Positions 33,074 through 63,572 are shown, numbered from the stretch's first letter. The stretch is 64,000 bases of DNA from Dehalococcoidia bacterium (GCA_040882355.1 JBBEBM010000042.1:17309-81308), one strand, 5' to 3'. Numbers and translations are program-made. The notes: generated by a model from the letters alone, not told the origin.

Positions 33074-33464
33074 CTGCCCGGCTTCCCTTCCGTATCAGAC
33101 GGCTTCCAGATTCAGTTTAGTCCCTTCGGTCAGGTCCTGCCAACAACGGGCTACCGGGTGCGACGGACGGGGCCCATAGGCGCCGCCGGCAGCTATGACA
33201 AGGTGCTCATTCTCTCGAGACACTCATCGGCACCAACCCTCGATCCGCGCCTGCCCTCGAGGCCTTGCTGCGACCCTCGACCCGGGGGAGGAGGGGCAGT
33301 GGGGGGCCTAGTCCGCCTCGCGGCCCCTGCCATCAAGAACTGCAATCACGACGCCGACCATGAATACGAGGGAGATTCGCGTCAGGAGAGAGATGCGCCG
33401 GTCCATGCAGAGTCGCCTTCCTGCTGTGCGCCACCTGTGGCGCCACCGCCCGAGCAGCGCAATC

Positions 33465-34100
33465 ATGCCACCGTCGCGTCCTCATGTCAAGGCCGTTGCC
33501 CTGCTGTTACCGCTAGCGGTCGTCGCTGCTGCTTGGGGCCTCGGGTGCACCGAACCTTCTGGACAGTCCGCTCAGAACCCCTCCGACCCCCGAACGAGTG
33601 CCGATTTTCGGGACCCGGTGGACGACGCGCAGAACGCCGGCGTCTCCGTCTATTGGCTGGGACCGGAGTTTGATGCGGGCGGCCTTCACTTCGCCGTATA
33701 CCCCGAAGCTGACTTCACTGACGACACCGATAGCCGCCATCCGGGGCTGAGCCTGGACTACTTCGCTCGCACTGCGGAAGGCAGCGTGCGCAGTGGCCTC
33801 GAGATGTACTCGAAGGCCGGCAACGGCCCACAGATCATGTTGGAACGAGCGTTGGCTGTGGATGGCGCGCTGGCGGACGAAGTTCAGGTTGGCGGGTGGC
33901 CTGCCCAACTCGTCACTCTGCCATCGCCGTCACGGCCCGTGAACAAGCTGTACCTGTTCGTTGACGTGGGCGACACGGTGGCCATCGTTCAGGCGGCCTC
34001 TGGTGAAACCGGCGTGCCCGGCGCGGACCCCAATCCTCTCATCGATAAGGACCTGCTCATCCAGGTTGTGGCGGAGAGCCTCCAGCCCATCCCAGAATAG
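33465..34100 (+). CDS. hypothetical lipoprotein (signal peptide LLLPLAVVAAAWGLGC)
   Basis: It has a lipobox. ATG 33465 is the likely start (ORF track: 33360). A fragment of its C-terminus is duplicated at 7955-8023. Confidence 0.5.
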   Translation: MPPSRPHVKAVALLLPLAVVAAAWGLGCTEPSGQSAQNPSDPRTSADFRDPVDDAQNAGVSVYWLGPEFDAGGLHFAVYPEADFTDDTDSRHPGLSLDYFARTAEGSVRSGLEMYSKAGNGPQIMLERALAVDGALADEVQVGGWPAQLVTLPSPSRPVNKLYLFVDVGDTVAIVQAASGETGVPGADPNPLIDKDLLIQVVAESLQPIPE

Positions 34101-35153: not shown

Positions 35154-35211
35154 CCTTCGACCCAGAGGGAAGGGGAGGCGGGAGATACGGCCTGTGGCCG
35201 ATAACCCTTAG

Positions 35212-35823
35212 GTGGCCCCTGCGGGCCGCGCGAGGGGTATCGTGAGCGAAGACGAGACGTTCGCACCCGCTGACGACGAAGGCGAGGCGTTGCTGGTCGC
35301 TCGCGCGAAGCAGCGCGAGCCGTCCGCCTGGGCCGAGCTGTACGACGCCCACTACTCGAAGCTCTACCGCTACTGCTACGCCCGCACGGGCGACGAGGCC
35401 ACCGCGGCCGACCTGGCGTCGAAGGTGTTTCTGGAGGCGCTGGAGGGCATCGACCGGTACGAGTTCCGGGGGCGCCCGCTGCTCGCGTGGCTGTACCGCA
35501 TCGCCCGGAACGTGCTCACGGACCACCTGCGCGCCCGCGAGCGCGAGTCGAAGGCGCTGGAGCAGGCGGCAAGCTTGAGCGACCGGCACGACCCGGGCCC
35601 AGACGCCCACGTAGCCGACCGCGAGGACCTGCTGGCCGCGATGAAGCAGCTCACCGAAGAGCAGCAGCAGGTGGTGGCGCTGCGCTACTTCGCCGGATGC
35701 AGCACCCCTGAGATTGCGCGCCTGATGCGACGAAGCGAACGGGCGGTCTACTCGCTGGAGGCGCGCGCGCTGGCATCGTTGCGGCGGCTGCTAGAGCCGG
35801 AGCAGGCGGAATCGGCGGCCTGA
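35212..35823 (+). CDS. RNA polymerase ECF-type sigma factor
   Basis: Sigma-70 regions 2 and 4 are present (FLEALEGIDRYEFRGRPLLAWLYRIARNVLTDHLR; HTH at the C-terminus). Confidence 0.85.
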   Translation: MAPAGRARGIVSEDETFAPADDEGEALLVARAKQREPSAWAELYDAHYSKLYRYCYARTGDEATAADLASKVFLEALEGIDRYEFRGRPLLAWLYRIARNVLTDHLRARERESKALEQAASLSDRHDPGPDAHVADREDLLAAMKQLTEEQQQVVALRYFAGCSTPEIARLMRRSERAVYSLEARALASLRRLLEPEQAESAA

Positions 35824-36009
35824 GCTGTCCAGGGAGACGGATCAGGCGATGGCGCGCCGGCCGTTGGCTCGGCTAGGGAACCCACGTGTCACGTCGTGGG
35901 GCCAGACCTATCGCTCGGGGTCGGCTCGCCGACCTTTCCGCTCAAAATGACAGGAGCACCCGAGGAAAATCGCGCTCCTCCAGCGATAGACGTTCGAGGA
36001 GGTGTCTGA

Positions 36010-36636
36010 ATGGAAGGCACGCTGATAGCAAACACAGCCGCCCTGCGAATTCATGTCCCGCCGCTGAGCGCCCTCCGCCCCAAGTCAGGCACGGAGGACG
36101 CAGAGGCGCGCCTGGTCGAGCGCGCGAAGGAGCGACGGCCGTCCGCCTGGGTGCAGATCTACGATGACCATTACCGGCGTCTCTACCTCTACTGTTACGC
36201 GCGGACGGGTGGCCGAGCGGTCGCAGCGAAGCTGGCGTCGCTGGTATTTCTGCAGGCGCTGAAGGAGATCGACCATCTCGTGCATTGGAGCGGCCAGTCG
36301 CTTCTCGCGTGGCTGTACGGCATGGCACGAAGTCACGTGGATGGGCATATCGAACGGGAGAGTAGCTGCGATCAAGTGGTCGATGCTGACGATGAGGGCC
36401 GGGAGATGGCGTGGATCCGGTCGCTGCCTCGAGAACAGCAGGAGGTGCTGGCCCTGCAATACTACGCGGGCTGCACGACGGCGGAGATCGCGAAGGTGAT
36501 CGAGCGCCCAGAGCAGTTCGTGGAGGGGCTGAAGGCCCGAGCGTTGCGCGGGTTGCTGCACGCGGGCAAGCTGAGACCGGACGCCACGCTCCCTACCGCG
36601 CCAGCCCTCGCTGGCGAGAGGAGAGTCCGGGCATGA
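36010..36636 (+). CDS. RNA polymerase ECF-type sigma factor (paralog of 35212..35823)
   Basis: It has the same domain layout, and its stop overlaps the next ATG (ATGA). Confidence 0.85.
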   Translation: MEGTLIANTAALRIHVPPLSALRPKSGTEDAEARLVERAKERRPSAWVQIYDDHYRRLYLYCYARTGGRAVAAKLASLVFLQALKEIDHLVHWSGQSLLAWLYGMARSHVDGHIERESSCDQVVDADDEGREMAWIRSLPREQQEVLALQYYAGCTTAEIAKVIERPEQFVEGLKARALRGLLHAGKLRPDATLPTAPALAGERRVRA

Positions 36637-37859
36637 ACGAGCTGAGCGACAAGCAAGTGACCATCCTGACCGACTTGCTGGCGGCGCTGGACGGAGGCGC
36701 CGGCCTGGAGGCATGTCTGGCGCGCTTCCCGAATGACGCGCACGCGTTGCGCCCCTACCTGGAGCTGCACACTCAGTTGCTGAGCCAGCAGAAGCCCGCG
36801 CCTTCAGCGGCCGATTACGATGCGGGCCGGGAGGCGCTCCTGGAGCGACTGGCCAGCTCCCCTGCGCCTGCGACGGGGCTCTCGCTCCGTGACACGGTCG
36901 CCGCTGCCTGGACCAGGGTACGACGAGGCGTTCGGCGCTTCGAGCTGAGCGGACGGGGGTTCCAGCCCGCGTTGATGCGCGTCGCGGCATTCGCGGCGAT
37001 CTTCCTGCTTATCGGTGGTGGCACGCTGGGCGCTTCGGCGGCGGCGGGCTTCCGGCCCTCGCGCGCAGTGCTTTCGAGCGTGGGCCTGATGGAACGCCCG
37101 CCGGCGAACGTGGCGCACGTCGAAGGTGACGACGACGCAGGCGCGACGCCCGGGCCGAATCGAGACGACGATGACGGCGGCACGAACGAGCCTGGCGAGA
37201 GCAACGGCGGGGACGATGGCGATCAGGTCGTCCGGCCGCCCGAGAGCGACGGCGGAGACGATGGCGGCGACGGCGACCCATCGCGGCCCGACGACGACCA
37301 AGGCGTCGATGTCCTGCCGACGCTGCCGGGCGGCGTCGACGTGCCACCGATCGAGGCGCCGCCGGTGGTGGTCATCGACCCGACGCCGGCGCCGCTCGAC
37401 CGGCTCTGCATGCCGCGAGATGCCGTGCAGTGGTACCCGCAGCTCGCGCAGTACGTGCGGACATGCACGGCCGACGAGTTCGCCGCGCTGATCGCGCCTC
37501 TGGGCAACACACTGTGCGTGCCGCAGGACCTCGTGTCGCGGCTGCCGTTGCTGCTTAGGGGGCTGCTGCCGGTCTGCAGCAACGCGCAGGCACAGGCGTT
37601 ACCGTGGCTCTTCTTCGCGAAGGGGTATTGCGTGCCGCAGGCGATCGCCCAGCGCGTGCCGGCGACGAGCGCCAATGCACTGCACGTCTGCACCCCCGAC
37701 GCGATCCTCGCGATACTGCTGGAGTCGCTGCCGCAGGACGAGTGTCTCTCCGGCAACCTGCTTGACCCGATCCTCTGTCCGAACGAGGGCAGCGAAGGGA
37801 GCGCGACCGACCCGATCGACGGCTTGCTCGGCGGGCTGGGCCTGACGCTCACCAACTAG
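36633..37859 (+). CDS. putative anti-sigma factor: cytoplasmic N-domain, one TM helix, D/G-rich spacer, Cys-rich extracytoplasmic domain with three C(M/V)P(R/Q)D-type repeats
   Basis: It is translationally coupled to the ECF sigma gene. It has a TM helix (AAFAAIFLLIGGGTLGASAAA) and the repeats LCMPRDAVQWYPQL, LCVPQDLVSRLPLL, YCVPQAIAQRVPAT. Confidence 0.5.
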   Translation: MNELSDKQVTILTDLLAALDGGAGLEACLARFPNDAHALRPYLELHTQLLSQQKPAPSAADYDAGREALLERLASSPAPATGLSLRDTVAAAWTRVRRGVRRFELSGRGFQPALMRVAAFAAIFLLIGGGTLGASAAAGFRPSRAVLSSVGLMERPPANVAHVEGDDDAGATPGPNRDDDDGGTNEPGESNGGDDGDQVVRPPESDGGDDGGDGDPSRPDDDQGVDVLPTLPGGVDVPPIEAPPVVVIDPTPAPLDRLCMPRDAVQWYPQLAQYVRTCTADEFAALIAPLGNTLCVPQDLVSRLPLLLRGLLPVCSNAQAQALPWLFFAKGYCVPQAIAQRVPATSANALHVCTPDAILAILLESLPQDECLSGNLLDPILCPNEGSEGSATDPIDGLLGGLGLTLTN

Positions 37860-37978
37860 CTTCCTGACACGCTGCCCTAGAGAGACGCCCCGATGCGGAG
37901 TCGGGGCGTCTCTCTTTCACCGAGATGGCGCGTAGGGTTGGTATACTGACGTAAGACACTATCGGATAGGGGCATCGC

Positions 37979-38677
37979 TTGTTCATCTACTACCTGGATC
38001 TCCTCGATACCGACTTCCTGCTCTTCCTTTCGTTCGCGGGGGCGGTGACGCTGGCGCTCATCGGAGGCATCGCCTTCCACGAGTTCTGTCACGCCGCGAG
38101 CGCGACTGCGCTCGGTGATACGACAGCGCAGCGGATGGGCCGCCTGACGTTGAACCCGATGGCGCACCTGGACCCGTTCGGGACGCTTCTCCTGTTCATA
38201 GCGGGCTTCGGCTGGGGCAAGCCGGTGCCCGTGAATACGGCGGCCCTTCGCAACGGTCGCACGGGCATGGCGATGGTTGCTGCGGCGGGCCCGCTCTCCA
38301 ACCTGCTGCTGGCGGCCATGCTGGCGGTCCCGATCCGGCTGGGCCTCGCGGACTGGCACAGTCCCTTCGCCGTCATCTCCAGCACGACGTTCTGGACGAC
38401 GGGCGATTACGTCGGGCTGTTCTTGAGCGCGGGGATCCTGCTGAACGTGATCCTGGCCGTCTTCAACTTCATTCCCCTCGCGCCTCTCGACGGCTTCAAG
38501 GTCGCGCTGGGGCTGCTGCCCGCCGACCTGGCGCGGCCGATCGCGGAGATGGAGCGCTACGGGATGGTGATCCTGATGGGGCTCTTCTTCATCGGCCCGC
38601 TCGTGGGGATCAACTTCTTCGACTGGGTGGTGCGGCCGGCGGTGGAGGCGATCGCCGGGACGCTGTTGGGGGTGTAA
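37979..38677 (+). CDS. site-2 protease family (M50) intramembrane metalloprotease
   Basis: It has HEFCHA (HExxH) and the LAPLDGF (LDG) motif in a polytopic membrane protein. Confidence 0.8.
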   Translation: MFIYYLDLLDTDFLLFLSFAGAVTLALIGGIAFHEFCHAASATALGDTTAQRMGRLTLNPMAHLDPFGTLLLFIAGFGWGKPVPVNTAALRNGRTGMAMVAAAGPLSNLLLAAMLAVPIRLGLADWHSPFAVISSTTFWTTGDYVGLFLSAGILLNVILAVFNFIPLAPLDGFKVALGLLPADLARPIAEMERYGMVILMGLFFIGPLVGINFFDWVVRPAVEAIAGTLLGV

Positions 38678-38680
38678 CGC

Positions 38681-39196
38681 TTGCTCGGACGCGGGCTGTA
38701 CCGTAGCCGGCAGTTCTTCTCGTCGCTACGGCCGCGCGTAGACGCGGCAGCGCGCCATGAAGCGTTCGCGCTGCTCTCCGATGGCGAGCGGGCGCTGTTC
38801 GAGACGATGACGCCCCGCGACCAGCAGCACTGCCTGAACGTGTACCGGCGGCTGCGAGACGAAGGGCACGCCGAACGCGACCCAGATGGCCGCAGCCTGC
38901 TGGCCGCGGCGCTGTTGCACGACGCGGGGAAGGGACGGATCGCGCTGTGGCACCGGGTGGTGTTCGTGCTCCTCGAGGCGGGCGCGCCCGGCGTGCTGCG
39001 CCGCGTTGCCGAGCCTGGCGATGGCACCGGCTGGCGGCAGGCACTCCACCGCTGTCTGCACCACGCGGAGCTGGGCGCGGAGGCCGCGCGCAGCGCCGGG
39101 TCGTCCGAACGCACCGTCGCGCTGATCCGGGAAGACGGCAGCGAAGCCCCCCCGGAGCTGCTTCTGGCGCTCAAGGGCGCGGACGACTCGGTCTGA
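38681..39196 (+). CDS. HD-domain phosphohydrolase-like protein
   Basis: The product contains H...LLHDAGK. Confidence 0.55.
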   Translation: MLGRGLYRSRQFFSSLRPRVDAAARHEAFALLSDGERALFETMTPRDQQHCLNVYRRLRDEGHAERDPDGRSLLAAALLHDAGKGRIALWHRVVFVLLEAGAPGVLRRVAEPGDGTGWRQALHRCLHHAELGAEAARSAGSSERTVALIREDGSEAPPELLLALKGADDSV

Positions 39197-39206
39197 GGAG
39201 CTCGTC

Positions 39207-40226
39207 ATGACACGGATCGCGATCATCGGCCTGGGGCTCATCGGCGGTTCGCTGGCGCTTGCGCTCAAGGAGGCGAAACGCGAGGGACTGGAGATCGCCG
39301 GCTGCGACGCCGATCGCGACGTAACAGGTCGCGCGCGCAAGCAAGGTGCGATCGACGTCGATGCCGACGACGCGGCGTCGGCCGTAGAGGGGGCCGCGGT
39401 CGTGGTGATCGCGACGCCGATCCTCAGCGTGCCGAAGGTCATGGAGGAGATGGCGGGCGCGCTGGCGAGCGACGCCGTCGTGACTGACACCGCGAGCACG
39501 AAGCGCCAGGTGCTGCGCTGGGCCGCGGAGCTGTTGCCGGCCGGCGTGAGCTTCGTCGGCGGGCACCCCATCGCCGGCAAGGAGCAGTCGGGGCTGGACG
39601 CGGCCGACGCCGCGCTCTTTCAGGACCGCCCGTGGGCGATCACGCCGTCGATCAGCGCGTCGGAGCGGGCGATCAAGACCGTGGAGAACATCGCCGCGCT
39701 GACGGGCGCGCGGCCCCAGCAGATCGACGCCGAGGAGCACGACAGCTACATGGCGGCGGTCAGTCACCTGCCGCTTGTGGCGACCACGGCGCTCTTCTCG
39801 CTCGCAAGCAGCAGCCAGGCGTGGCCGGAGCTGGCATCGCTGGCGGGCCCCGGCTTTCGCGACACGACACGCCTCGCCTCGACCGACCCCGATCTGAGTC
39901 ACGACATCTGCCTCACGAACCGGGAGAACGTCCTGCACTGGATCGACCGTTATCTCGAGGAGCTGCGCCGCCTCCGCGCGCTCATCGCGGACGGCGATCA
40001 GCAGGACGAGCTGTTCAAGGCCTTCGCCAAGGCGCAGGCCGAACGCGACGCCTTTCTGGAGGCGCCACCGCAGCGCCCAAAGGGAGACGGCCCAAAGGTG
40101 CCGAGCGCGGGCGAGCAGATGATGACGTTCATGATGGGCGAATACCTGACGCGCCGGCAGAAGGACGTCAACGAGATGATCGAGCGTATGGGCCGCGAAA
40201 ACGAGCCGCGGCGAAGGCGGACCTAA
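39207..40226 (+). CDS. tyrA: prephenate (arogenate) dehydrogenase
   Basis: It has an N-terminal Rossmann fold (IAIIGLGLIGGS) and is TyrA-like. Confidence 0.88.
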   Translation: MTRIAIIGLGLIGGSLALALKEAKREGLEIAGCDADRDVTGRARKQGAIDVDADDAASAVEGAAVVVIATPILSVPKVMEEMAGALASDAVVTDTASTKRQVLRWAAELLPAGVSFVGGHPIAGKEQSGLDAADAALFQDRPWAITPSISASERAIKTVENIAALTGARPQQIDAEEHDSYMAAVSHLPLVATTALFSLASSSQAWPELASLAGPGFRDTTRLASTDPDLSHDICLTNRENVLHWIDRYLEELRRLRALIADGDQQDELFKAFAKAQAERDAFLEAPPQRPKGDGPKVPSAGEQMMTFMMGEYLTRRQKDVNEMIERMGRENEPRRRRT

Positions 40227-40229
40227 GCA

Positions 40230-41525
40230 GTGGCCACAAGTGTGACGCGTCCGGCGCGACTGCGGGGCACGGTCCGCGTGCCCGGCGACAAATCGATCTC
40301 GCACCGGACGGCGCTCCTGGGCGCGCTCGCTTCGGGAACCACGCAGGTGCGCCGCTTCCTGACGAGCGACGACTGCCTCTCGACGCTGGCCTGCCTGGAA
40401 GCGATGGGCCTCGAGTACCGGCTCGAAGATCAGGAGCCCGGCGTCGCGACACTGGAGATCGAGGGCGTCGGGCTGCGCGGGCTGCGCGAGCCCGCAGACG
40501 TGCTCGACGCGGGCAACTCCGGCACCACGCTCCGACTGCTTTCGGGCGTGCTCGCGGGTCAGCCGTTCTTCTCGGTGCTGACCGGCGACGAATCGCTGCG
40601 ATCGCGGCCGATGGACCGGATCGTGCAACCGCTGCGGCTGATGGGCGCACAGCTTTGGGCGCGCGACGGCGACCGCAGGCCGCCCCTGGCGATCCGCGGC
40701 GGCTCACTGCACGCCATCCGCTACCGCCTGCCCGTCGCGAGCGCGCAGGTCAAGTCGGCGGTTCTGCTGGCGGGGCTGTTCGCTGAGGGTGAAACGATCG
40801 TGGAGGAGCCGGAACGGACCCGCGACCACACGGAACGCCTGCTGCGCGCGATGGGCGCCGACCTCCAGCGCGAAGGGCCTGGGGTCAAGCTGGCGCCACC
40901 CGAGTCGCTGGAGTCGCTGGACCTGGAAGTACCGGGCGACCTGAGCGCGGCGGCCTTCTGGCTGGTCGCGGCCGTGGCGCACCCAGACGCGGAGATTGTC
41001 CTGCCGGCCGTGGGGGTGAACCCAACCCGAACCGGCCTGCTGGACGTACTATCGATGATGGGAGCGAGCGTCGACGTGGGTGAGCAGCGCATGGCGGGCG
41101 AGGAACCCGTGGCCGACATCACGGTTCGCAGTTCCCGGCTGAGCGGCGTTGACATCGGCGGGGAGCTGGTGCTGCGCATGATGGATGAGGCGCCCGCCTT
41201 CGCCGTCGCCGCGGCGGTGGCAGAGGGCCGCACAGTCGTTCGAGACGCGGCCGAGCTGCGGGTGAAGGAATCGGACCGGATCGCGTCGCTCGTGCGGGAG
41301 TTTTCGAAGCTAGGCGTGAGCATCGATGAGCGGCCGGACGGCTTCGCGATCGAGGGCGGGAGACCATTGAAGGGCGCGGGCGTCAGCGGGGGCGGGGACC
41401 ACCGGCTGACGATGGCGCTTGCGGTGGCGGGCCTGCTGGCGGAAGGAGAGACCGTGGTGGCAGACGACGACTCGGTAGCGGTATCCTATCCTGGGTTCTG
41501 GCGAGATCTAAGGCAGTGCACGTAA
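40230..41525 (+). CDS. aroA: 3-phosphoshikimate 1-carboxyvinyltransferase (EPSP synthase)
   Basis: The product is EPSP synthase-like along its full length (LRGTVRVPGDKSISHR..., LDAGNSGTTLRLL). Confidence 0.92.
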   Translation: MATSVTRPARLRGTVRVPGDKSISHRTALLGALASGTTQVRRFLTSDDCLSTLACLEAMGLEYRLEDQEPGVATLEIEGVGLRGLREPADVLDAGNSGTTLRLLSGVLAGQPFFSVLTGDESLRSRPMDRIVQPLRLMGAQLWARDGDRRPPLAIRGGSLHAIRYRLPVASAQVKSAVLLAGLFAEGETIVEEPERTRDHTERLLRAMGADLQREGPGVKLAPPESLESLDLEVPGDLSAAAFWLVAAVAHPDAEIVLPAVGVNPTRTGLLDVLSMMGASVDVGEQRMAGEEPVADITVRSSRLSGVDIGGELVLRMMDEAPAFAVAAAVAEGRTVVRDAAELRVKESDRIASLVREFSKLGVSIDERPDGFAIEGGRPLKGAGVSGGGDHRLTMALAVAGLLAEGETVVADDDSVAVSYPGFWRDLRQCT

Positions 41526-59185: not shown

Positions 59186-59365
59186 ATGCTGGTGTTATCG
59201 CGAAGGGTCATGGAAGGCGTTGTCCTGTCGGGCAACATCCACGTGCAGGTGTTGTCGATTAAGCGCGGCCGGGTGAAGATCGGCATCACGGCGCCAAGCG
59301 AGGTCGAGGTGCTCCGTGAGGAACTGCGCGGGCGCGAGCTGGAGGGGCTGTCGAGCGATGCTTGA
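59186..59365 (+). CDS. csrA: carbon storage regulator CsrA
   Basis: A GAGGAGGAG RBS precedes the ATG. The product MLVLSRRVMEGVVLSGNIHVQVLSIKRGRVKIGITAPSEVEVLREEL is a strong match to CsrA. It is not in the ORF track (59 aa). Confidence 0.8.
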   Translation: MLVLSRRVMEGVVLSGNIHVQVLSIKRGRVKIGITAPSEVEVLREELRGRELEGLSSDA

Positions 59366-59936
59366 GGTCGCGCCTTCCGAGTCTGCAAGCGAACGGGAGT
59401 TGGTGGAGCGAGCGATCGGACGCGACGGCGACGCGTTCGCGGCGCTCTACGACCGCCATGCCACAGCCATTTATCGGCGCCTTTACAAGCTCGTCGGTAA
59501 CGCGCCGGACGCGGAGGACCTCACGGCCCAGGTCTTCCTGCAGGCCTGGCAGGCCATCGACCGATTCGAGCTTCGAGGGGCGCCGTTTGTTTCGTGGCTG
59601 ATGCGTATCGCGCACAACCTGGCCGTGAGCCACCTACGGCGACACCGGGACCATGCGCAGCTTCCGGAGGCTGCGGAAGGCCCAGGTTCAAGACAGACCA
59701 ATCCGGAGGAGGCGGTCCAGCGCCTTCTGGACGAGGAGCGCGTCCTGCGGGCGCTCCAGAACCTAGGACGCGAACAGCGCCTGGTCGTCGCGCTGCGGGA
59801 GCTTGACAACCTGGACTACCGCGAGGTGGCAGCCATTTTGGGCAAGAGCGTGCCCGCGGTGCGGGTGATCCGGCATCGAGCGATCAACGCCCTACGCAGG
59901 CAGATGGCCCCGGACGCCCAGATGGCCGGCGCCTGA
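59358..59936 (+). CDS. RNA polymerase ECF-type sigma factor; start overlaps the csrA stop (ATGCTTGA)
   Basis: The product is MLEVAPSESASERELVERAIGRDGDAFAALYDRHATAIYRRLYKLVGN... It contains sigma-70 regions 2 and 4. Confidence 0.75.
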   Translation: MLEVAPSESASERELVERAIGRDGDAFAALYDRHATAIYRRLYKLVGNAPDAEDLTAQVFLQAWQAIDRFELRGAPFVSWLMRIAHNLAVSHLRRHRDHAQLPEAAEGPGSRQTNPEEAVQRLLDEERVLRALQNLGREQRLVVALRELDNLDYREVAAILGKSVPAVRVIRHRAINALRRQMAPDAQMAGA

Positions 59937-60039
59937 GGGCGATTCCCGGCCTGACGCCACGGGGAAGCGCATCCTAGGCGTGTGGTACCGTTAGCATGCT
60001 GGAATCCCGTGTTCTCCCAACCCGGGGTGGCTTAGGTTC

Positions 60040-61941
60040 ATGCAAACTACTCAAGCGCCGGAGCGCGAAACGGACGATGTCCTCGTCGTACGGGCGCGGG
60101 CAGGCGATGAAGACGCCTTCGCCCGGCTCTACGAGCGCTACTTTGGCGGGGTCTACGACTTCGTCCTACGGATCGTCCGCAACCCCGACGCCGCGGCGGA
60201 CGTGGTGCAGAGCACCTTCGTGTCGGCCTGGCAGGCGCTTCAGAAGGGGAGCGGCCCTGCGAACTTCAAGGCCTGGCTCCTCGTCACCGCCCGGAACGGC
60301 GCGATCGACGAAGTCCGGCGACGGCAGCGCTTGACTTCGTTGCCGGACGAGGCAAACGATCGGGGCGAGCCCAGCCCCTACGCGGAACTCTCGGCCGGCA
60401 GGTCGTCCGATCCGCTGGCCGTGGCCCAGGAGCGAGAGGTGGCGGAGTTGGTCTGGGGCGCGGCGACCGCGCTGGACCCGCGAGAGTACTCGCTGCTCGA
60501 CATGAACCTCAGACAGGGCCTGAGCGCCGACGAGCTCTCCGACGTGCTGGGCGTGAGCAAGGGCAGCATCTACACCCGACTCTCCCGGCTGCGCGGTTCG
60601 TTGGAAGAGTCGGTCACGTCGTCGTTGCTAATGCGGCGCGGACGGGAGGAGTGCCCCGACCTCGACCTCCTGCTGCTCGAGCTCAATGCAGTCGAGCTGA
60701 CAAAGGACGTACGGCAGAGGATTCAGGCCCACCTCAAGGAGTGCCCTCGCTGTCAGGAGAGCAAACGCCGCTTCGTCTCCCCAATCGAGATCTTCGCCGG
60801 CATCCTGCCCATCGCGGTGCTCCCAGCCGTCCAGGACTCGATCTGGCAGGGCGTGGTAGCCGGGATTGCTGCGGGCGTTGCCGTCGGCCATGGCTTGCTC
60901 GCTGTCCCGCGCCAGTGGTGGGCGGCAAGCTCAACCGCGACGCGAGCCATGGTGGTCACCGTGCCCGGCGTCGTCATCGTGGCCGGCCTCATCCTGGGTC
61001 TCCTGTCGCTGCTCGGAGGTGGAGGCGGGGTCGAGGACCCGGGTGACGTCCACAGCACGAGTCACGAAATCGGCCGGGCCTCCGGCGAAAACGTGGTCCA
61101 GGTCGTTTGGTCCCGTCAGGAGGACGTGCAAGGTTACTCCGTGCGTTGGAGTCAGGCGCCCCGGGACCTGCCGGACGAGGAGACGGATCTCCTGGGAAGC
61201 GCAACCGGGGCGACCAGCCCCGCGCTAGCCGGCGGATCGTGGTACTTCCACCTGCGGACGCAAGGGGACGGCGGCGACTGGACGAGCACGGTGCATGTCG
61301 GACCATTTGTCATCGACGAGACAGGTGAGGTGGCGGGAGCCACGAGCGTTCCGCCCGAAGCTGAAACATCGCCCTCCGAGACGCCCACCCCGAGCTACGT
61401 TCCGACCGCCGCGACTCCCATGTCGCCGCCGGCAATCGCTGCGCCGCGATCGAACGCCGTAGGACCGATTCCGGCCACGCCGAAGACTGCAGCCGCAACG
61501 CCAACCGCTACGCCGTCACCGACCGCGACACCAAGCGCGACTCCGACCGAGACCCCAACCGTGACACCCACGAAGACGCCGACCAAGACACCCACAAAGA
61601 CGCCGACCAAGACACCCACGAAGACGCCGACCACGACACCCACGAAGACGCCGACCGAGACACCAACGCCAACAGCGACGGAGTCCCCTACGCCGCGAGC
61701 GACGCCGACGCCGACCGAAACACCTACGCCAACACGCACGCCGACACCGAGAGAGACGCCTACACCAACTCGGACGCCTATTCCAACACCCTCCGAGACG
61801 CCCACACCAACGAAGACTCCCACGCCTGCCAAGACGCCTACGCCAACGAAAACTCCTGTACCGACAAAGACCCCTACCACGGCCAAGACGCCAACGCCGA
61901 TAGCGATGCCCACCCCCACGCGACCGCCCAACCCCCACTGA
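60040..61941 (+). CDS. single-polypeptide ECF sigma / zf-HC2 anti-sigma fusion with TM helix, conserved extracytoplasmic domain and a long Thr/Pro-rich tail
   Basis: Sigma regions 2/4 occupy aa 1-190. A Cys motif [10 protein letters not shown] is followed by a TM helix. The external domain carries the motif [36 protein letters not shown]. The tail is (TPTKTP)n. Confidence 0.7.
61555..61670 (+). repeat. ~24-bp tandem nucleotide repeat (ACGCCGACCAAGACACCCACGAAG)n encoding TPTKTP units
   Basis: Seen in sequence inside the tail of the 60040..61941 gene. Confidence 0.7.
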
Positions 61942-62048
61942 CGCACCGGCGTATCACAGACCCTGAGCCCCAGAGCCGCCGCCAGTAAGCGGGACAGCCT
62001 CGTCTAGCCTGGGCGGGGGGCCCTAGGAGCAGAACGGGTGTACAATGG

Positions 62049-63572
62049 TTGGCGGGAGCGGCACGGAGTACCACCCACAGGATGGAAATGGAAGTCGAAC
62101 AGCTCACGGACGAGGAGCTGGCCGTCAGGGGAGGTGAAGGCGACCAGGCCGCCTTCACCTCCCTCTACGAGCGCTACTTCCAGCGCATCTATGACTTCGC
62201 GCTGCGCCTCACGCGCGATCACGACGAGGCGGCAGATGTCACACAATCGACGTTCCTCAAGGCATACCAATCGCTCGAGCAGCGAGACCAGAACGCCAGC
62301 TTCAAGTCGTGGCTCTTCACGATCGCCCACCACGATGCGCTCGACCGCATGCGTCGCGGGCGTCGCCTCGTGCGCACCAGCGATGCCCAGGACGAGGAGG
62401 GTCTGGCCGTCCTCGCTTCGGACCGTCTGCGCGATCCGCTGGAAGCGGCCGAGCGAGACGAGATCGGGCGGCTGGTCTGGGAGGCGGCGCGCGGGCTCAA
62501 ACCACGAGAGTACGCGCTGCTCGATCTCTATGTGCGGCAGGGCATGGATCCGGTCGAGATATCGCAGATCACGGGCGTGCGGAGGGAGTCGGTGCATACG
62601 GCGCTGAGCGGCCTGCGCGGCGAGTTCGAGGAGGCGTTCACAGCGCTGATCCTGGTCGCGCGTGGCCGTTCCGCCTGCGAGGAGCTGGCGCAGCTCGCCG
62701 GCCCGCCTTCGCCCAAGGTGCGCGAGCGGGTGATGCGCCACCTGGAGGTGTGCGAAACGTGCCAGGAGAGCCGGCGTCGCTACGTTACGGCCGTCGAGTT
62801 CCTGGGCGCGATGCCACCGGTGGTGGTGCTGCCCGCGCTGCAGGACTCGATCCTGAGCCACGTCCTCACGCACACAGGGACCGCTGCGGACACCGAAGCG
62901 CCCGTTCTGGACGAAGGCTCGCCAGGCGTCGATGCGTTGCGGCGGTTCTGGCTGCGCTGGCGGCTGGCGCTGAGCGCCGCAGCGGTCGTGGTCGCGTCGC
63001 TCCTGTTCTTCGGGGTCGTGATGGCGCAGCGCGGTTCGGGTGGTGGTGAACAGGGCCCCCGCGACCCCCAGGACATCCGCAGCACGTCGCATGAAGTGGG
63101 CGTGCCGTCCCAGGAGCAAGACGTGGTCATCGTCTGGACGCCGCTCGACGACCTGCTGGGCTACTCGGTGCGCTGGAGCCAGGACCCGGACGCGCTGCCT
63201 GACACAACGCGCGACCTGCCCGGCGACGCCGACCGCGCCTGGACCCATCTTGCGCCGGGGAACTGGTACTTCTCGCTGCGGACAGAAGACCAAGACGAGC
63301 AGTGGACGAGCACGGCGCACCTGGGGCCATTCATGATCCGGGGCGACGGGCCGACGCCGACGATCACGGCTTCGCCGACCGTGACGCCCACCGGCGAGGC
63401 GACCCCAGCGCCGACCCGACCGCGGACGCAGCCGCCCGCCGTCGCTCCCAGCGCCACGCCCATCATTATCCGGCCGCCCACGGCAACGCAACAGCCCGCG
63501 CCGCCACCACCCACCGCGACACGCGTACCGCCCACAGCCACTCAGGCGCCGCCGCCCACGCCGACCCCGTAG
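62049..63572 (+). CDS. paralogous ECF sigma / zf-HC2 anti-sigma fusion with the same extracytoplasmic domain and a Pro/Thr/Ala-rich tail
   Basis: It contains HLEVCETCQE, a TM helix (ALSAAAVVVASLLFFGVVMA) and [37 protein letters not shown]. The start may be ATG 62082 (MEMEVEQL). Confidence 0.7.
   Translation: MAGAARSTTHRMEMEVEQLTDEELAVRGGEGDQAAFTSLYERYFQRIYDFALRLTRDHDEAADVTQSTFLKAYQSLEQRDQNASFKSWLFTIAHHDALDRMRRGRRLVRTSDAQDEEGLAVLASDRLRDPLEAAERDEIGRLVWEAARGLKPREYALLDLYVRQGMDPVEISQITGVRRESVHTALSGLRGEFEEAFTALILVARGRSACEELAQLAGPPSPKVRERVMRHLEVCETCQESRRRYVTAVEFLGAMPPVVVLPALQDSILSHVLTHTGTAADTEAPVLDEGSPGVDALRRFWLRWRLALSAAAVVVASLLFFGVVMAQRGSGGGEQGPRDPQDIRSTSHEVGVPSQEQDVVIVWTPLDDLLGYSVRWSQDPDALPDTTRDLPGDADRAWTHLAPGNWYFSLRTEDQDEQWTSTAHLGPFMIRGDGPTPTITASPTVTPTGEATPAPTRPRTQPPAVAPSATPIIIRPPTATQQPAPPPPTATRVPPTATQAPPPTPTP

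Follow-up and report, generated by a model that had tools for sequence, protein, structure and literature searches.

Pairs of a sigma factor of the extracytoplasmic function (ECF) type and its anti-sigma factor form the commonest third pillar of signalling in bacteria, but most of their sensors are unknown, above all in Chloroflexota that have not been cultivated. The system discussed here consists of two sigma factor genes (called sigA and sigB in the following), a gene for a 408-residue membrane protein and an M50 (site-2) peptidase gene, and it lies at 35212-38677 on the + strand of a 64,000-nt stretch of DNA, referred to as the window, from a Dehalococcoidia bacterium metagenome-assembled genome (MAG). 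The closest characterised relative is the BldN/RsbN pair of Streptomyces venezuelae (ECF121, PDB 6DXO). RsbN has a cytoplasmic part of 117 aa, a transmembrane (TM) segment at 118-139 and an ectodomain of 272 aa, and it founds the class III anti-sigma domains, in which helices 1 and 2 contact sigma-4 and helix 3 contacts sigma-2 and sigma-4; homologues have been reported from Streptomyces only, and no similarity to other anti-sigma families was seen (PMC6101532). Two other systems which invite comparison are SigW/RsiW of Bacillus subtilis and SigE/RseA of Escherichia coli, where an ECF sigma factor likewise goes with a single-pass anti-sigma factor. In the case of RsiW, PrsW makes the first cut just outside the membrane, RasP makes the second, and Clp peptidases then degrade the product (PMC8767453).

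Set beside these systems, the core of the Dehalococcoidia cluster is probably an ECF sigma/anti-sigma switch formed by the sigma genes and the membrane protein gene, and not a three-part proteolysis cassette, the M50 gene being the start of a separate operon. An earlier note on this DNA, here called the original prediction, had described the cluster as a complete regulated intramembrane proteolysis (RIP) module containing a recent sigma duplication. The genes that it named are all present where it had placed them, with small corrections only:

35212-35823, + strand: sigA, open reading frame (ORF) with Sigma70_r2 and r4_2
36010-36636, + strand: sigB, ORF with r2 and r4_2, 48% identical to sigA
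36633-37859, + strand: ORF for the 408-aa membrane protein, the candidate anti-sigma factor
37979-38677, + strand: M50 peptidase gene (PF02163)

The proposed ATGA coupling of sigB to the membrane protein gene is also seen, the sigB stop overlapping the start of the 408-aa ORF at 36633-36636, and the same coupling is common to the window and the related loci L004 and L088. The 408-aa protein is 100% identical to the hypothetical protein WEE64_07800 of a Dehalococcoidia MAG. The GC content is ~64-73% across the region and the composition is uniform without a break. A viral or mobile origin of the cluster was considered and rejected, as the flanks are housekeeping genes and the composition is uniform.

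Both sigma genes code for ECF (group 4) members of the sigma-70 family. Against Pfam cutoffs of 24 bits for Sigma70_r2 and 25.7 bits for r4_2, sigA scores 64.5 and 46.5 bits, while sigB scores 26.5 and 30.3 bits and so has the weaker r2 match. Over 170 aa the two proteins share 48% identity (E 4e-45), which together with the Pfam scores bears out the claim of two paralogous ECF sigma genes. The BldN family model TIGR02952 of NCBIfam is the top match for both, at 143.9 bits for sigA and 77.8 bits for sigB, where the curated cutoff is 206.45 bits; the two are BldN-like but fall short of the cutoff for membership of the BldN family/ECF121. The closest PDB sequence to sigA is also BldN (6dxo_A, E 1.4e-26; the runner-up has 1e-14), and in a trimmed alignment sigA and BldN are ~44% identical. 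Orthologues of sigA in L001, L003, L004 and L006 are 63-93% identical to it.

The 408-aa protein matched no Pfam or NCBIfam model and has six homologues among 5.8 billion clustered proteins. It contains one hydrophobic segment at ~aa 112-139, and the Arg-rich N-flank of this segment places the N-terminus inside, in the cytoplasm. That the protein is an anti-sigma factor is indicated by the company it keeps. Wherever a related locus had enough sequence, a sigA-type gene was found directly 5' of a gene with the same N-terminal domain (the N-domain), that is in the window, L001, L003, L004, L006, L085, L086, L088 and the P0004 contig. Metagenome contigs scanned with a sigma alignment gave 80 loci, which were then searched with a hidden Markov model (HMM) of the N-terminal 79 residues. 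An N-domain ORF lies immediately 3' of the sigma gene in 63 of these 80, with a median match-to-match distance of ~90 nt, and in 9 further loci the contig ends within 350 nt of the sigma gene. The sigmas of these metagenome relatives are 40-50% identical to sigA, and the N-domain consensus (L-x-E-C-L..LE.G....E-x-C-L-x-R-x-P-E-x-A..L-R-P-x-L-E ... G-R..L-L) is retained. It should be noted that word-indexed protein searches with N-domain alignments returned almost nothing, probably because of low-complexity words.

The ectodomains found on this conserved head are interchangeable, and include FecR (PF04773), DUF5667 (PF18915), acidic low-complexity tails and a second kind of Cys-rich repeat, as well as a weak dockerin-like match below threshold. 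FecR and DUF5667 ectodomains are typical of anti-sigma factors, and here they occur on N-domain family members behind the same kind of sigma; the window protein differs from them in carrying neither, and has instead a Cys-repeat array of a narrow clade. Anti-sigma factors are recognised by just such a pattern, a conserved cytoplasmic head with swapped ectodomains that follows a single kind of ECF sigma, and the 408-aa protein is very probably the cognate anti-sigma factor of the sigma pair; on this point the original prediction stands, as the pairing recurs in 63 of the 80 metagenome loci and in each related locus that is long enough to show it. The N-domain family is widespread and previously undescribed, with members in genomes of Dehalococcoidia/Chloroflexota and on unclassified environmental metagenome contigs.

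Some members of the family deserve mention in their own right. L107, L110 and L122 code for short proteins ending in dockerin/EF-hand-like motifs, a weak Pfam dockerin match below the cutoff being found in L107 only, and in the wider set some of the downstream genes code for cohesin-domain proteins, a hint of an anchoring pair with the dockerin-like tails. In the distant branch the commonest downstream neighbour is a SIMPL/DUF541 protein (6 of the 41 ORFs scanned, in six of the loci L102-L159), and these proteins may be regulon members.

The membrane protein can be divided into four parts:

36633-36866, + strand: aa 1-78, the cytoplasmic N-domain, a putative sigma-binding module of four helices
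36966-37088, + strand: aa 112-152 (...LLIGGGTLGASAAAGFRPSRAVLSSVG), TM helix with juxtamembrane motif, where the protein is most conserved
37098-37382, + strand: acidic Asp/Gly/Pro-rich stalk, aa 156-250, delimited by composition and by a low predicted local distance difference test (pLDDT) score
37398-37727, + strand: Cys-repeat ectodomain of three ~37-aa CxP...C units (C259/C278, C295/C315, C333/C353)

The TM/juxtamembrane segment has a ratio of nonsynonymous to synonymous substitution rates (dN/dS) of 0.065 and invariant columns in the homologue alignment. Conservation peaks in the TM helix, in its outer half, and in the residues which come after it (GGxLGASAAxGFxPSRxVLS), and the segment is retained in distant relatives with unrelated ectodomains. 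We consider it a candidate for a protease-recognition or signal-transfer segment. The predicted Asp/Gly-rich spacer corresponds to the stalk, where 21 Asp (22%), 17 Gly (18%) and 16 Pro (17%) are found among 95 residues; its pLDDT is below 50, its length and composition vary among the homologues, and it is modelled as disordered.

The ectodomain has eight cysteines, C259, 278, 295, 315, 333, 353, 371 and 382, the last two being a less conserved pair that extends the Cys region to ~37787. Nine cysteines in three CxP repeats had been predicted: the three repeats were found (C259-MPRD, C295-VPQD and C333-VPQA), but the count was one too high, as the ninth cysteine, C28, is cytoplasmic. Aligned with one another, the three ~37-aa units score above shuffled controls (p ~0.0005-0.003), and the relative P0012 contains nearly identical tandem copies of the unit. 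The number of CxP...C units differs between relatives, with three to four in the window, P0002-P0004 and P0010-P0012, two in L085 and L090, one in L092, L100 and L101, and none in L006. In the structural model aa 256-365 have a pLDDT of ~87-92 and every Cys lies in a short beta-bridge, the strands of C259 and C278 both being called, so each unit as modelled probably closes an intra-unit disulfide (CxP...C). No match to aa 250-408 was obtained in Pfam, NCBIfam, PDB sequences or solved folds, and when the ectodomain profile was run with HMMER against all 1.84 billion representatives, seven proteins came up, each of them the same kind of anti-sigma factor. The Cys-repeat ectodomain is thus undescribed, as had been suspected, and it is very rare and clade-restricted. 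With a dN/dS of 0.43 it evolves faster than the remaining protein. Anti-sigma ectodomains are generally diverse and often unannotated. Another Cys-rich array was seen in a homologous anti-sigma factor at L098:564-2009 (+ strand), which has ~16 copies of a ~13-residue FCxxQPDRCxxLxxFC... unit and no Pfam match.

The features which separate the sigma unit from the M50 gene, and the genes which follow the latter, are these:

37879-37915, + strand: perfect 16-bp GC-rich hairpin followed by TTT, terminator-like, 3' of the anti-sigma stop
37939-37947, + strand: extended -10 TGGTATACT of the M50 operon, conserved in five loci
38681-39196, + strand: ORF for an HD-domain protein, downstream of the M50 gene
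39207-40226, + strand: ORF for prephenate dehydrogenase (tyrA)
40230-41525, + strand: ORF for EPSP (5-enolpyruvylshikimate-3-phosphate) synthase (aroA)
3' of the EPSP synthase gene: RemA-like protein, then guanylate kinase (gmk)

The M50 protein has 232 aa and matches PF02163 only (residues 24-196, 37.2 bits against a cutoff of 27.2). Its HEFCH and NFIPLAPLDG (NxxPxxPLDG) motifs are invariant in four orthologues, and by these motifs the gene is catalytically intact; Pfam finds no PDZ domain, and no PDB sequence matched the M50 profile. Core PDZ-less site-2 proteases of ~220-260 aa are known, such as S2P of Methanocaldococcus jannaschii and YwhC of B. subtilis, and to our knowledge the substrates of this subfamily are unknown. 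The window enzyme is like them in being small and in having HExxH, LDG and membrane segments only, and unlike them in lacking a PDB profile match and in being embedded in a string of aromatic amino-acid and housekeeping genes.

If the cluster were a dedicated RIP cassette, the adjacent M50 enzyme would be the cognate site-2 protease, cutting the anti-sigma factor and freeing the sigmas. The intact HExxH and LDG motifs agree with this, as does the position of the M50 gene 3' of the anti-sigma gene in the window, L001, L003, L004, L006, L085 and 6 close metagenome loci, and the TM segment has a helix-breaking GGG and an Ala-rich stretch, which are frequent in site-2 protease substrates. We find such a cassette unlikely all the same, because the M50 gene has its firm ties on the other side. 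Orthologues which are 43-59% identical head the string M50-(HD)-tyrA-aroA-(remA)-gmk in most of 80 Dehalococcoidia loci, and outside the close clade no related sigma was found within 7 kb of the M50 gene in any of 78 loci (L007-L084), the genes upstream of M50 in the sigma-less loci being diverse and mutually unrelated. Conversely, none of the 24 sigma/anti-sigma loci that are more distant and have 700 nt or more of downstream sequence contains the M50 gene, and their downstream genes are diverse. Adjacency is confined to loci with a sigma at least 60% identical to sigA.

The intergenic region points the same way. The M50 gene was said to follow immediately, but there is a gap of 119 nt between it and the anti-sigma gene, while the gaps further downstream are 3 nt (M50-HD), 10 nt (HD-tyrA) and 3 nt (tyrA-aroA). 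The gap contains the hairpin, with a fold of -53 kcal/mol (z -3.8), and equally strong hairpins of different sequence stand in the same place after the anti-sigma stop in L004 and L006. It also contains the extended -10, TGnTATA(C/A)T, whose TG-TATA-T columns are invariant in five otherwise diverged upstream regions. The M50 protein is far more conserved than the anti-sigma factor (95% against 69-74% identity to L004; dN/dS 0.10 against 0.30). RasP and RseP are PDZ-bearing and are encoded apart from their substrates, whereas the window enzyme is a PDZ-less core protease, and the annotated genes around the cluster include no evident site-1 protease, corresponding to PrsW or DegS in the RsiW and RseA systems. 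We take the M50 gene to be the first gene of a separate housekeeping operon, which stands beside the sigma module as a neighbour and not as a demonstrated component. From the sigma-less M50 strings, the M50-less sigma loci, the hairpin, the separate -10, the gaps and the lack of a PDZ domain and a site-1 protease it follows that the claim of a complete RIP module is not supported. Across the Dehalococcoidia a PDZ-less membrane protease is linked in this way to aromatic amino-acid and housekeeping genes.

The second alternative concerns the way in which the sigmas are released. In this alternative the membrane protein would be an RsbN-like class III anti-sigma factor with three main helices, from which the sigmas are set free without proteolysis, by a conformational or partner-dependent change following the ectodomain signal. 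BldN is the closest solved sigma, the anti-sigma gene adjoins the sigma gene in both systems, and the architecture is the same as that of RsbN (PMC6101532), with ~110-117 cytoplasmic residues and an ectodomain of ~270 residues (here ~111 aa, a TM segment at 112-139 and 269 aa). Neither of the two anti-sigmas resembles other anti-sigma families in sequence. In the window protein conserved helical segments and an invariant Arg66, followed by Leu69/Leu70, stand at the positions of Arg67/Leu70/Val71, which contact sigma-2 in RsbN (PMC6101532), a likeness by position only. However, searches of PDB sequences with the full-length protein and with narrow and broad N-domain profiles gave chance matches only, with 6dxo among the entries searched, and comparison with solved anti-sigma folds gave no fold match. 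AlphaFold2 predicts the N-domain (pLDDT 82-94) as a compact four-helix unit, with helices at 6-20, 25-31, 33/36-51 and 59-75, in place of the three loosely linked helices of RsbN. There are two sigma paralogues here, both below the TIGR02952 cutoff, and the N-domain family was found in Dehalococcoidia/Chloroflexota genomes and on environmental contigs, while RsbN homologues are reported from Streptomyces only. As release of this kind would also leave the very strong TM/juxtamembrane conservation unexplained, we regard it as quite improbable.

The N-domain did not show the features of a class I anti-sigma domain. With E values up to 10 allowed, none of 11 family members gave a Pfam match to class I models (zf-HC2 etc.), the HxxxCxxC zinc motif is absent and the single conserved Cys28 varies across the wider family, so that none of the marks of that class (zf-HC2, RskA, RseA_N, HxxxCxxC) was found, in contrast to RsiW and RseA, which have class I domains. 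A tentative and rather doubtful suggestion is that the N-domain represents either an undescribed ECF anti-sigma class or the first RsbN-like class III domain outside Streptomyces, used with exchangeable ectodomains, and that in this clade one anti-sigma factor with a disulfide- or metal-reactive Cys-hairpin repeat sensor would serve two sigmas that differ in promoter specificity, in a two-output switch. The remaining alternative, that the membrane protein is no anti-sigma factor but a sigma-dependent envelope or surface protein which is merely co-transcribed, would fit the failure of Pfam, NCBIfam, PDB sequence and fold searches to detect a known anti-sigma domain, but it is very improbable in view of a cytoplasmic N-domain conserved over 60+ loci while the ectodomains are swapped, a pattern of anti-sigmas and not of effectors, of the FecR and DUF5667 ectodomains in the family, and of the translational coupling to the sigma gene.

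The two-sigma layout is found also in L004, L086, L088 and L089. A neighbour-joining tree rooted with BldN, which included the second sigmas of the window, L004, L086 and L088 and left out that of L089, placed these second-position sigmas in one clade and all first-position and single sigmas in another. The second-position clade is backed by shared derived residues. At the same time the anti-sigmas of the two-sigma loci are just 32-37% identical to the window protein. Taken together this argues that the duplication is old and not, as originally suggested, recent; the single-sigma lineages have probably lost the second copy. The dN/dS is 0.24 for sigA and 0.25 for sigB (against L004), and sigB is under purifying selection. 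The possibility that sigB is a decaying pseudogene was rejected on the basis of this value and its conservation in four lineages. In the alignment sigB departs from residues which the other sigmas keep invariant, both in the IARN..DH.R motif and in the recognition helix of region 4, and together with the drop of the r2 score to 26.5 bits this makes it plausible that its promoter specificity has changed.

One further feature bears on how the sigma genes may be controlled and where sigA starts:

35197-35212, + strand: conserved motif GCCGATAACCCTTAGG; at least 12 related loci carry it upstream of a sigA-type gene

The GTG at 35212 begins with the last base of this 16-nt motif, and since the motif is itself conserved 5' of the orthologues, a start at 35212 is doubtful; judged from the sequence, the GTG at 35242 with GAGGGG ahead of it is more likely the true start. 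In the window GCCGATAACCCTTAGG occurs once, allowing up to 3 mismatches. In its general form, (G)CCGATA(A/C)CCC(T)TAGG, the motif lies 40-70 nt 5' of sigA-type genes in at least 12 loci (the window, L003, L006, L089-L099 and L103), a degenerate copy, GCGATAGACGTTCGAGGAGG, stands directly ahead of sigB-type genes, and the 3' half is able to pair with the ribosome-binding-site region. We consider it a candidate for the -10 of an autoregulated promoter or for a leader element of the sigma operon. Of a -35/-10 pair for this operon, the conserved CCGATAAC core was all that could be pinned down.

From these observations we propose the following scheme for the ECF switch. The 408-aa protein would hold sigA and sigB through its four-helix cytoplasmic N-domain, sigA being the ancestral partner and sigB an old tandem paralogue which has diverged in its promoter-reading regions. 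The Cys-repeat array on its acidic stalk would sense an envelope, redox or ligand signal. A signal-dependent loss of the ectodomain would then be followed by an intramembrane cut at the Gly/Ala-rich TM/juxtamembrane segment and by release of the sigmas, as in RsiW (PrsW-RasP) and RseA (DegS-RseP), with which the Gly/Ala-rich TM segment is compatible. We favour this route because the TM/juxtamembrane segment is conserved and has Gly/Ala features like those of site-2 protease substrates. The M50 operon would be constitutively promoted, its adjacency would be a clade-specific synteny, and the M50 enzyme would be one candidate only for the intramembrane cut; that the neighbour is the enzyme which performs it we think unlikely.

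Several points weigh against this scheme. Binding of the N-domain to either sigma is deduced from association, and proteolytic release from sequence conservation; for RsbN-BldN, the closest characterised relative system, we know of no RIP step. The clade with sigmas at least 60% identical to sigA has an adjacent M50 gene whenever the sequence suffices (7 loci and L001, L003, L004 and L006), and a functional link between M50 and the anti-sigma factor might exist within this close clade. That transcription ends at the hairpin is predicted only; its T-tract is short, for which reason a simple terminator scan did not call it. Finally, long-branch attraction among the fast-evolving second sigmas may distort the neighbour-joining tree.

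Two other regions of the window were noted. Upstream of the cluster a 246-aa ORF (33360-34100, + strand) without Pfam match has a signal-peptide-like start ending in AAAWGLGC and may code for a lipoprotein. A second ECF cluster lies at 59316-63572 (+ strand), where an ECF sigma gene (59316-59936) is followed by genes for two long proteins, of 633 aa (60040-61941) and 507 aa (62049-63572). Both begin with an ECF sigma domain at the N-terminus, to which a zf-HC2 anti-sigma motif is fused, followed by a membrane segment, an ectodomain and a tail rich in Pro and Thr.

Overall the cluster is an ECF switch of an ordinary kind, and what is new is the rare ectodomain and the widespread, unannotated head which probably binds the sigmas. 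The definition of the N-domain marks anti-sigma factors which are missed by current domain libraries, and the free swapping of ectodomains on one head speaks of modular sensing. For annotation the locus is a caution, as a site-2 protease gene beside an anti-sigma gene can be plain synteny and not a RIP cassette. If the link to class III should be true, a mechanism so far confined to Streptomyces would extend to another phylum.

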